From positions 1 through 34,640 of the IMG/VR virus record IMGVR_UViG_2877285697_000008: a stretch of DNA of 34,640 nt, one strand, 5' to 3'. Positions 27,188 to 28,482 of this stretch are shown here, in pieces; position 1 is the first letter of the stretch, and each line of letters opens with the position of its first letter. A program made the translations under genes and the position numbers. The DNA is from a virus (taxonomy: Duplodnaviria; Heunggongvirae; Uroviricota; Caudoviricetes). The notes beneath the pieces were generated by a model. That model searched no databases. It saw nothing but the letters and a program-made list of their open reading frames with translations, and had not been told where the DNA came from.

Positions 27188-27379
27188 TGGAGCACCTGTG
27201 TTGTTCTGAGGTGAGCATATCACCTCTGTTCAGGTGGCCAAATTCAGTGTGCCACTTCAGGTTATGGCTTTTGGTATAGAGAAAAAAGTTATTGCTTTTT
27301 GACGTAAAAACTGCTTCAATTCTTGTACGCTTCGCAAAGCTGTACCGCGAGGCGAATAGCAGACATGGACATTTGAAAG

Positions 27380-27403
27380 AGCCCGCTTTATGCGGGTTTT
27401 TTT
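27380..27403 (+). terminator. Intrinsic terminator upstream of the tRNA cluster
   Basis: Stem AGCCCGC/GCGGGT(T) with loop TTTAT followed by a 7-T run. Confidence 0.55.
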
Positions 27404-27491
27404 ATACCTGAAAAACGGCACAGGACGTTAAACGTGCTGGTGGTCAGATGAGTTTGCAGATGTGATGACATATGGTTATTATTCTGCCTCC

Positions 27492-27568
27492 GGTCCTTTA
27501 GCTCAGTTGGTCAGAGCGAGCGACTCATAATCGCCAGGTCGCTGGTTCAAGTCCAGCAAGGGCCACCA
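27492..27568 (+). tRNA. tRNA with CAU anticodon (Met or lysidine-type Ile2, ileX/ileZ-like)
   Basis: Cloverleaf readable by hand: acceptor GGTCCTT/AAGGGCC, anticodon loop CTCATAA, T-arm GCTGG-TTCAAGT-CCAGC, encoded CCA. Confidence 0.8.
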
Positions 27569-27569
27569 A

Positions 27570-27646
27570 CCACCACTAGCTCATCCGGATAGAGCATCAA
27601 CCTTCTAAGTTGACGGTGCGAGGTTCGAGTCCTCGGTGGTGGGCCA
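27570..27646 (+). tRNA. tRNA-Arg (anticodon UCU)
   Basis: Acceptor CCACCAC/GTGGTGG, anticodon stem TCAAC/GTTGA with loop CTTCTAA, T-arm CGAGG-TTCGAGT-CCTCG, encoded CCA. Confidence 0.8.
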
Positions 27647-27648
27647 GC

Positions 27649-27724
27649 GCCGACTTAGCTCAGCAGGCAGAGCAACTGACTTGTAATCAGTAGGTCACCA
27701 GTTCGATTCCGGTAGTCGGCACCA
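27649..27724 (+). tRNA. tRNA-Thr (anticodon UGU), thrU-like
   Basis: Acceptor GCCGACT/AGTCGGC, anticodon stem ACTGA/TCAGT with loop CTTGTAA, T-loop TTCGATT, encoded CCA. Confidence 0.8.
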
Positions 27725-27727
27725 TAT

Positions 27728-27802
27728 GCGGGCATCGTATAATGGCTATTACCTCAGCCTTCCAAGCTGATGATGCGGGTTCGATTCCCGCTGCCCGCTC
27801 CA
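27728..27802 (+). tRNA. tRNA-Gly (anticodon UCC), glyT-like
   Basis: Acceptor GCGGGCA/TGCCCGC, anticodon stem TCAGC/GCTGA with loop CTTCCAA, T-arm GCGGG-TTCGATT-CCCGC, encoded CCA. Confidence 0.8.
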
Positions 27803-28415
27803 GCGAGATTTGAGACGAAGGTTGTTATTTGCACTGACACAATATTGTGTGGGAATGTCTGACTCCTTACCATCTCCTGTTCTGTGATGTTGTTTTGTTG
27901 CAGTTCCAGTGCTCTTTTTTCAGCACCAGAATGGTGCATTGTCGGTCAGGTTACGTAGTGAACCTCTGGCAGGGGACTGATGATTCATCATTCTGGTGTT
28001 GTAAATATCTCTTCGGACAACTTACAAAATATTCTAAGCAAACCCCGGGAACACACTCTTAACTGCCTTGGTTGGCGGTTTTTTGTACAGCGCTCGGTAT
28101 GTGTGAGCTGGAAATCAGATTTTGCATGGACTGGAATCATGCTGTTATTTAGGGGCGAAGAACTGGCTTTTTCTTCCGCCTTCTCACCAGTAACGATTAG
28201 AAAAATAATGAAATGCCCCCCTCCGGGGAGGAGGACCGTAGAAAAAAGGACCCGCCAGCAAAAACATTGGGGATGAACAGCTTTCGCTACTCAGATTGCT
28301 GGCGGGTAAAGTTCCTCATGAATTAAGAATGCTACGCGATCTTTTTTAATGGAAATGAAAATTATTGTCAATTAGTCGTGCGTGTTTTTTCATACAATAT
28401 TGGTAAAGGTGATTC

Positions 28416-28447
28416 AGGCCATCAGAGTTTTGCTGATGGCCTTTTTT
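28416..28447 (+). terminator. Strong intrinsic terminator (tR'-like) about 35 nt upstream of the holin gene
   Basis: Perfect 10-bp stem AGGCCATCAG/CTGATGGCCT, 7-nt loop, then TTTTTT. Confidence 0.7.
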
Positions 28448-28482
28448 CTTTCCGATAGCACAGGTCTGTCGGGGGGCGGGAT

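Follow-up and report, generated by a model that had tools for sequence, protein, structure and literature searches.

The DNA described here is the 34,640-nt IMG/VR virus record IMGVR_UViG_2877285697_000008, and this whole stretch is called the window. Within it, the region 27260-28482 and its flanks were followed up. The region is probably the 5' leader of the late operon of a lambdoid prophage with a DUF1133/Q21-related antiterminator, in which terminators gate the lysis genes and a tRNA operon is followed by a structured trailer. Between the last of four tRNA genes and the holin gene lie about 680 bp (27803-28482, here called the leader) with no supported open reading frame (ORF). To judge from their homologies, these 680 bp are two conserved non-coding modules, each found elsewhere. 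Module I goes with the tRNA island, and module II with the holin. The same homologies indicate that the modules recombine independently, making the interval a mosaic. The core of module I is a long hairpin that is conserved as an RNA structure.

An earlier note on this DNA had described a toxin-phage-style late region with an empty cargo slot, and had proposed that the leader is either the scar of lost cargo or the source of a small RNA. Its view of the leader as structured and without a convincing ORF is borne out. When the ten longest stop-to-stop frames were compared with Pfam and NCBIfam at E<=1, nothing matched apart from one noise match at E 0.075. The ORFs of the leader had no match in PHROGs. 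In addition, 21 neighbouring and cargo proteins, including Stx2A/B, NanS-p, LT-IIb A/B, NmpC, a methyltransferase, and IraM, were compared with the leader by tblastn, and only the tail of Q was found. The A and B subunits of Shiga toxin (Stx) 2 and of LT-IIb gave noise only (E>0.6), and records of Stx phages show no DNA match beyond the tRNAs. Finally, none of the frames of the leader survives the indels of 1, 2, and 3 nt that separate homologues.

In relatives, the slot after the late promoter (pR') and the tRNAs holds stx and other morons. For this reason the 680 bp might be the remains of a cargo gene (a toxin, porin, or esterase or the like) that was lost by decay or a frameshifted protein gene, the latter being an outcome that the earlier note had itself considered. 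ORFs of 71 and 98 amino acids (aa) can be drawn in the leader, and RefSeq annotates a hypothetical protein of 63 aa in the homologous stretch of MS20654. However, the 98-aa ORF straddles the junction of the two separately derived modules, and homologues are offset by indels of 1-2 nt that disrupt the frames, that of the annotated 63-aa ORF among them. In intact relatives, too, no gene occupies this place, over a length of ~560-780 bp: 680 bp in E. coli FDAARGOS_944, 659 bp in UMNK88, 563 bp in an LT-IIb phage, 753 bp in the prophage of a 'DH5alpha' assembly, and 778 bp in the sequenced phage vB_EcoS-683R6. The long hairpin also evolves through compensatory changes. With no similarity to any protein family or tested cargo, a lost or broken gene is very improbable, and the picture of an empty slot is not upheld.

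The junction of the two modules lies between 28087 and 28102, as shown by independent homologies on its two sides. To the left, the stretch that also includes the tRNAs (27475-28087) is an 81% match to UMNK88, a prophage in which Q and the lysis cassette both differ; this homology ends exactly at 28087. The right part (28102-28699) is an 88% match to MS20654, which has no tRNAs and has a methyltransferase upstream. Prophage contigs in IMG/VR show the same two combinations of modules. The order Q, tRNAs, module I, holin can be found in phage vB_EcoS-683R6 and in intact relatives with three different lysis cassettes. Module I is present in the intervals of the intact relatives, and the sequence downstream of it may differ. 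Three structures had been described in the earlier note as features of a single leader: a 14-bp palindrome, an 11-bp inverted repeat, and a 10-bp terminator just before the holin. All three are found where they had been placed, and two of them are conserved hairpins, but they are split over the two modules.

Module I accompanies the tRNA island in many lambdoid prophages. An alignment of copies from these prophages shows a core of ~110 nt that is kept even with unrelated flanks. The long hairpin in this core has a helix of ~27 stacked pairs (16 and 10, with one 1x1 mismatch between them) and an apical stem. The window copy folds at -40.4 kcal/mol on the plus strand (z -5.7, where z-scores compare energies with those of shuffled sequences) and at -23.2 kcal/mol on the minus strand. 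For the consensus of 23 unique cores, the values are -38 kcal/mol (plus) and -2.8 kcal/mol (minus). The two strands differ because many of the pairs are G-U.

Covariation in the hairpin was measured with RNAalifold in 21 variants, which fold at -44 kcal/mol with 35 pairs. Across these variants 97.4% of cells are paired, compared with 37-53% when the partners are slid. Compensatory change is seen in nine pairs, compared with 3.0 +/- 1.2 in shuffles (0 of 500). A covariance model scores 82 bits in the window, where it finds a single copy, and it has no match in the Sp5, E2348/69, DLP12, or MS20654 loci. Membership in the family was judged by this model, and the true members all come from genomes of enterobacterial isolates. 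In a 17-mer scan of viral contigs, the metagenome-derived matches were due to chance and were rejected by the model.

The window and its relatives were also searched with Rfam 15, at the gathering score and at E<=10. The tRNAs alone pass, and the long hairpin matches no family. The other best matches score 15-23 bits against thresholds of 37-140, and they include microRNA-precursor models, which merely reflect the long hairpin. The relatives gave no matches either.

A long hairpin might instead act as DNA, as the operator of a dimeric protein, a recombination site, or a miniature inverted-repeat mobile element. In relatives its 3' arm contains a perfect 12-bp palindrome, ATGATGCATCAT, the centre of the stem is nearly invariant, and some copies have insertion sequences (IS) inside the element. 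Nevertheless, the G-U pairs suit only the strand of the late operon, in the consensus as in the window, and nine pairs have changed in a compensatory way. With respect to the lysis genes, the orientation and the place of the element are always the same, and it occurs once per prophage, at a median of one place per genome. A role as DNA is therefore improbable. In a reading by eye, no convincing match to a sigma-70 or sigma-54 promoter was seen within the hairpin. In some Shigella-type IMG/VR copies (L025, L031) the IS lies within the 5' arm of the long hairpin, at the equivalent of window position ~27930. Another site of IS insertion, in copies L024, L031, and L040, lies between terminator t3 and the holin.

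The sequence after the hairpin comes in two types. In the short type, to which the window belongs, an unstructured tail of ~60 nt follows and terminator t2 closes the module. The stem of t2 shifts from CTGCC to CCGCC opposite GGCGG in homologues, and a T-run lies 92-95 nt past the hairpin motif in all short-type copies. In the long type, seen in relatives and absent from the window, the hairpin is followed by an extra domain of ~140 nt with three helices and a conserved GGGAGGCACCCGAC. Compensatory change is found in 9 of the 32 predicted pairs of this domain, and GGGUG may pair alternatively with CACCC. Long-type loci are L056 2627-2802 (minus strand), L002 3388-3561, L089 ~3650-3830, and 16 others. 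The set of E. coli genomes used for the leader searches holds 5426 complete genomes, and the long-type element matches 441 of them (~8%), again with a median of one place in each. One long-type element can be found in the prophage of the 'DH5alpha' assembly (NZ_CP026085.1, 2576125-2584571), which also has DUF1367, DUF1364, DUF1133, tRNA-Thr, tRNA-Gly, and a holin/M15 peptidase cassette. A prophage of that kind is not expected in a laboratory strain of K-12.

Upstream of the long hairpin, the 14-bp palindrome ACACAATATTGTGT (27837-27850) makes up the stem and loop of a small conserved hairpin. Read from the alignment, its stem varies between haplotypes (ACACA/TGTGT, CACAT/ATGTG, GCGTA/TACGT) and its flanks are constant.

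Hairpins processed by RNase III are known from phage transcripts, for instance in the lambda N leader and sib and at intergenic sites of T7. The window hairpin is likewise a near-perfect helix of more than two turns within a long polycistronic phage transcript, the latter being predicted. RNase III substrates have at least ~20-22 bp of nearly continuous double-stranded RNA; the predicted helix has this length, and it is kept in the 21 variants. With more than 22 bp of double-stranded RNA, the long hairpin would most likely be an RNase III processing or stability element that splits the tRNA precursor from the downstream RNA. The same step may free the t2-terminated tail as a small RNA. No description of an RNase III-type hairpin behind a tRNA cluster was found in the literature searched.

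That the leader may encode a small RNA is a reasonable idea, and covariation strongly backs the long hairpin as an RNA structure. The hairpin and tail could, for example, be a regulatory RNA acting in trans, either as an Hfq-type small RNA or as a sponge made from a tRNA trailer. A sponge of this sort is 3'ETS-leuZ, the trailer of the glyW-cysT-leuZ tRNA operon, which acts on small RNAs. Both 3'ETS-leuZ and module I are non-coding, are co-transcribed past the last tRNA (for the window, a prediction), and end at an intrinsic terminator. Unlike 3'ETS-leuZ, module I is prophage-borne, ~285 nt long, and dominated by the 90-nt hairpin. A role in trans is favoured by the terminator hairpin and U-run at the end of the tail, by a 20-nt single-stranded block, TAAGCAAAMCCYGGRAA, that is conserved in the tails of otherwise differing haplotypes, and by a conserved unpaired CUGGCAGGG in the apical part of the hairpin. 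Moreover, prophage late leaders are rich in small RNAs (PMC4104026, PMC8550237). However, a promoter of its own was not found for this RNA, and long-type relatives have the 140-nt structured domain instead of the tail. Because of this replacement, a simple seed-pairing small RNA fits poorly. An RNA acting in trans is thus rather unlikely, and a processing or stability element is preferred.

Module II accompanies the class II holin, and in MS20654 too it lies upstream of one. A search with the whole leader matches 1632 of the 5426 genomes, mostly through module II and at 85-87% identity; 643 of the places found are on plasmids. When one genome of each species was scanned, Shigella flexneri and E. 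coli were the sole carriers, and there were only chance matches outside Escherichia/Shigella. Module II also persists without the holin in prophage remnants, beside iss on a large iroBC/iss plasmid and in an ST131 island. Such holin-less copies, with their terminator, can be found in plasmid pECAZ159_1 (locus 4001-4344) and in the ST131 chromosome (locus 4001-4344), near the pap operon.

The inverted repeat in module II is formed by CCCGCCAGCAA (28251-28261) and TTGCTGGCGGG (28296-28306), and reaches 12 bp when the flanking A/T is included (28250-28307). It folds at -27.6 kcal/mol on the plus strand and at -29.7 kcal/mol on the minus strand, and no shuffle is as good. On the minus strand UCC-UUUUUU comes after the stem, the loop forms a GAAA-capped stem, and an invariant TTGACA is located from 28371 down to 28366. 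A promoter-like site on the plus strand (28181-28209) was treated as chance, its spacing being lost in other haplotypes. Another candidate, the ipeX idea, took module II and t3 as the 3' untranslated region of a lost nmpC/lc porin gene. It was ruled out: nmpC is on the opposite strand in MG1655/DLP12, where its 3' end lies near quuD, and the DLP12 sequence upstream of essD does not resemble the leader.

These features allow another explanation, in which the minus strand of module II would be the source of a small RNA that converges with the tRNA-trailer transcript, in the manner of PasA/PasC or AsxR/AgvB, with the inverted repeat as its terminator. The TTGACA is followed ~66 nt later by the 12-bp stem and its U-run, the fold with the GAAA-capped loop helix has a z-score of -4.6, and a second minus-strand hairpin with a T-rich tail comes next. 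PasA of enteropathogenic E. coli has the same design, position, and orientation, antisense to the late operon and just upstream of the holin. On the other hand, the sole -10 candidate is TAAAAA, in which the final T is missing, and a promoter scan gave no minus-strand site. In one haplotype the stem has changed in such a way that it still pairs only on the plus strand, and the consensus fold is better on that strand. The similarity to PasA is not significant: in a global alignment with the window, z is 2.4 and 10 of 500 shuffles are as good, and BLAST finds no match. A minus-strand small RNA is for these reasons doubtful.

The interval after pR' carries small RNA genes in lambdoid prophages (PMC4104026, PMC8550237, bioRxiv 10.64898/2026.05.13.724894). 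The anti-small RNAs AsxR/AgvB (PMC4104026) and PasA-D (PMC8550237; bioRxiv 10.64898/2026.05.13.724894) occupy the same slot as the leader, from pR' or the cargo to the holin. In all of these and in the window, short units ending in terminators are found on both strands, and both PasA and module II lie just upstream of a class II holin. The window hairpin differs in being much longer and on the strand of the late operon. Homology to PasA/PasC/PasD, AsxR, or StxS was looked for and rejected, and BLAST on the E2348/69 loci finds only the holin and tRNAs. On the minus strand of E2348/69 (locus 5267-5560), PasA is followed immediately by a second unit of like design, with TTGACA, AGCCAGCG-loop-CGCTGGCT, and a U-run. 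From the alignment (z 8.3), this second unit is clearly related to the first, and pasA thus seems to be half of a tandem arrangement.

Directly upstream of the late promoter, where a Q-dependent lambdoid late operon has its antiterminator gene, the window has only a 43-nt tail of the Q-like gene beside an IS911 copy, and the remaining 512 nt are absent. The replacement of Q by IS911, proposed in the earlier note, is in effect correct. The intact DUF1133 protein of relatives matches PF06576, PF06530 (29.4 bits, cut-off 26), and PHROG 753, 'anti-termination protein Q-like'. In a published survey DUF1133 was called a Q antiterminator by HHpred (PMC8136144). The putative pR' overlaps the end of the Q-like gene. 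Its pattern, TTGNNN-17-TTCAAT, is kept in the window and in three others (the DH5alpha-assembly prophage, phage 683R6, and the LT-IIb phage), which have a DUF1133 Q or its pR'-tR' block. In these four prophages a conserved transcribed block of ~75 nt and then a terminator lie downstream of the site.

This terminator, tR', folds at -18.2 kcal/mol in the window (z -6.7; 0 of 200 shuffles as good), and its position and stem are conserved in relatives. Since a pR'-like site and a strong terminator lie within ~80 nt, a short leader RNA of ~77 nt is expected. Terminator-like sites are four times as frequent in 26900-28800 as in shuffles (8 compared with 2.0 +/- 1.5). Three predicted terminators, tR', t2 (28061-28084), and t3 (28416-28447), have a G+C-rich stem-loop and a U-run on the transcribed strand. 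The last of them ends 35 nt before the holin start codon and is kept in all three haplotypes of module II. Beyond it, the genes for holin, lysozyme, and Rz lie on the same strand (28483-29600), and in the intact relative a terminase gene is located downstream. The succession given in the earlier note, with a first terminator, tRNA genes with anticodons CAU, UCU, UGU, and UCC, a second terminator, and lysis genes, is confirmed in every part. Table 1 is a collection of the features.

Table 1. Features of the late-region fragment in the window, with the basis for each
Feature	Position	Strand	Basis
Displaced Rz 3' end and dedA, inverted across IS911 copy	25158-26013	-	99.9% match to FDAARGOS_944 locus 7335-8190
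IS911 copy truncating the Q-like gene	26011-27259	-	Repeat search; RefSeq name of 100% identical copies
DUF1133/Q21-family antiterminator gene, last 43 nt including TGA stop	27260-27302	+	Alignment to FDAARGOS_944, where the coding sequence ends at 5043
Putative late promoter (pR'-like): -35 TTGCTT, 17-bp spacer, -10 TTCAAT	27292-27320	+	Predicted from sequence
tR'-like intrinsic terminator: GCCCGC/GCGGGT stem, A-tract before, seven T after	27374-27404	+	Folding, conservation
Putative sigma-70 promoter: TTTGCA, 18 bp, TATTAT; ends 9 nt ahead of first tRNA	27453-27482	+	Predicted; scan, 9/12 matches
tRNA, Ile2-type, CAU	27492-27568	+	ARAGORN and Rfam RF00005
tRNA-Arg, UCU	27570-27646	+	ARAGORN and Rfam RF00005
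tRNA-Thr, UGU	27649-27724	+	ARAGORN and Rfam RF00005
tRNA-Gly, UCC	27728-27802	+	ARAGORN and Rfam RF00005
Module I	27803-28087	+	Homology with UMNK88
Small conserved hairpin, GCACTG-[stem-loop]-GGG	27831-27853	+	-7.4 kcal/mol, z -2.8
Long RNA hairpin, ~90 nt, core of module I	27917-28005	+	Folding, covariation
Terminator t2, closing module I	28061-28084	+	Terminator scan
Module II, 350-nt non-coding unit	28102-28451		Homology
Hairpins of module II	28124-28142, 28215-28236		Listed within module II
Terminator t3: 10-bp stem (28416-28442), six G-C pairs, six T	28416-28447	+	-17.3 kcal/mol, z -3.5
S21-type holin, 71 aa, dual start MYQM	28483-28698	+	PF04971, 'Bacteriophage P21 holin S'
Phage lysozyme	28698-29195	+	PF00959
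Rz, cut off by IS911 at ~29600	to ~29600	+	PF03245; alignment to FDAARGOS_944

The four tRNAs score 56-70 bits against the RF00005 gathering score of 29, and all four genes encode their own CCA end. RefSeq labels them tRNA-Ile, tRNA-Arg, tRNA-Thr, and tRNA-Gly in near-identical genomes, the CAT gene being a tRNA-Ile of the ileZ (lysidine) type. In the prophage genes of the window, the codons that they read, AUA, AGA, ACA, and GGA, account for 16.8, 10.1, 19.1, and 17.8% of the respective codon families. These shares exceed the E. coli averages. A candidate promoter ahead of the first tRNA has a counterpart, TTGCA(A/G)-17/18-TATTAT, at the same position in UMNK88 and in the Stx2 prophage Sp5. 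The phage tRNA-Thr(UGU) and tRNA-Gly(UCC) genes (27649-27802) are 98.7% identical to genes in a Salmonella tRNA-Thr/tRNA-Tyr/tRNA-Gly cluster. This identity suggests that the pair was captured from the host thrU-tyrU-glyT operon, with tyrU omitted.

Stx phages such as 933W and Sp5 have the same order of parts (Q, pR', tR', ileZ-argN-argO, stx, lysis genes), and the likeness to their late layout that the earlier note had seen is supported. The first two tRNAs of the window are 88-89.5% identical to ileZ and argN of Stx2 phages, Sp5 shares the promoter-like site ahead of the tRNAs, and terminators precede the lysis genes in both. In contrast to Stx phages, the window has neither stx nor other tested cargo, and has extra Thr and Gly tRNAs, 98.7% identical to host-type thrU/glyT. 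The leader was found to contain no toxin genes of the stx or LT-II kind, by which a toxin-converting phage would be recognized. Sp5 differs further in its Q family, its pR'-tR' is not alignable with that of the window, and the two non-coding modules are absent from it.

In Stx phages pR' is constitutive, and its early-terminated product is the regulatory small RNA StxS (PMC7547250). StxS binds Hfq, and the window likewise has a promoter-like site at the end of Q and a terminator within ~80 nt. However, the block in the window has no sequence similarity to StxS, and its Q gene is missing. A structured stretch that a long-range helix closes, GCATGGTG...CACCGGGAGGCACCCGGCACCATGC, is shared by Sp5 (3950-4090, downstream of stx2B) and L006 (3720-3850). 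The GGGAGGCACCCG motif in it is reminiscent of the long-type domain, and the stretch is found where Tree et al. placed convergent small RNAs.

The lysis genes resemble the phage 21 cassette (S21 pinholin, R21 endolysin, Rz/Rz1), in that a PF04971 holin of 71 aa with a dual start is followed by lysozyme and Rz. However, the window holin DNA is only ~80% identical to essD of DLP12, the leader upstream is unrelated to that of DLP12, and the window Rz is truncated by IS911.

Taken as a late-operon leader, the region would work as follows. Whenever Q is absent, pR' and tR' would yield an RNA of ~77 nt. The terminators tR', t2, and t3 would act as plus-strand gates, so that holin, lysozyme, and Rz are reached only by Q-modified, terminator-resistant RNA polymerase. 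Terminator gating by Q is established biology in lambda, phage 82, phage 21, and 933W, and it is because of these phages that Q gating is proposed for the lysis genes of the window. In a lysogen the tRNA operon, serving rare codons that end in A, would be read from its own promoter and stop at t2. In the window itself Q is destroyed and Rz is truncated; the lysis genes should therefore be silent, and only self-promoted RNAs could still arise.

Several points weigh against this account. The -10 element of the late promoter (TTCAAT) is imperfect, and both promoters are predictions from sequence. As a single sequence t2 is weak (z -1.5). Cleavage by RNase III is a prediction from the length of the helix. 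The middle of the stem is conserved beyond the needs of pairing, and this extra conservation, with the DNA palindrome ATGATGCATCAT of relatives, means that a protein-binding role is possible. Module II consists of three haplotypes, 85-100% identical. This is too little diversity for a covariation test. Its consensus fold is -77.8 kcal/mol on the plus strand compared with -58.8 kcal/mol on the minus strand, yet the minus strand has the better terminator-like features.

The prophage remnant is an inverted fragment, flanked by IS911, in a chromosome of the type of Shigella or enteroinvasive E. coli (EIEC). Between 27260 and 29600 the window is 99.7% identical to the prophage of FDAARGOS_944 (its locus 5001-7340), in which the order is DUF1367, YbcO-like, DUF1133, four tRNAs, holin, lysozyme, Rz, dedA, terminase. 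A repeat search finds three identical copies of IS911 in the window: 23909-25157 (+), 26011-27259 (-), and 29609-30858 (+). The RefSeq name on 100% identical copies is 'IS3-like element IS911 family transposase'. The late-region piece is bracketed by inverted copies, and its orientation is flipped relative to the 3' end of Rz and dedA; the fragment was therefore cut and inverted by IS911. The dedA gene is recognized from a VTT/DedA domain (Pfam) in ORF 25345-25857. Shigella flexneri SFBU1023 and E. coli ECMA0423 contain the same pieces in a different rearrangement, and the SFBU1023 copy is similarly broken.

Elsewhere in the window, further pointers to Shigella/EIEC are a gene for an ipaH-type NEL ligase, a contractile-tail module, and elements of the IS4, IS66, and IS3 families. 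The ORF at 645-1811 has a NEL C-terminal E3 ligase domain (254 bits) and belongs to an ipaH-type effector gene (window 1-1811), which points to a Shigella/EIEC chromosome. The ORF ahead of it (1-612) may be the detached N-terminal part of the same gene. The contractile-tail module (9269-23800, minus strand) encodes baseplate J, a baseplate hub, a minor tail protein (tape-measure-like), DUF3383, and a tail-fibre trimerisation domain. Probably it represents the morphogenesis genes of this prophage or of one next to it. IS elements flank it: IS4- (3991-5337), IS66- (7877-8986), and IS3-family (6682-7500).

As a genome feature, the region is an ordinary one: a prophage remnant riddled with IS elements, with a layout known since the Stx phages. 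Small RNA genes in this slot and the architecture of the late region are likewise already known. What is new is an unlisted structured RNA module tied to the phage tRNA island. Tentatively, the ~90-nt hairpin with its tail (short type) or three-helix domain (long type) might be an undescribed prophage RNA family. In lysogens, such an RNA would be transcribed along with the phage tRNAs and then undergo RNase III processing, and it would act in trans on host RNAs or in cis on the stability or timing of the lysis mRNA. If this is true, the 'empty slot' is regulatory cargo in its own right.

In any case, the absence of genes over a long interval between Q and the lysis genes should not be taken as the mark of a deletion scar. 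Genes for tRNAs are common at the 5' end of late operons, and their manner of expression is unknown (bioRxiv 10.1101/2020.10.05.325894). The hairpin behind phage tRNA genes bears on the question raised in that phage L paper, whether the tRNAs are cut from the late mRNA or self-expressed. If the hairpin is a processing site or the precursor of a small RNA, it adds to the late-leader RNAs by which prophages tune host physiology.

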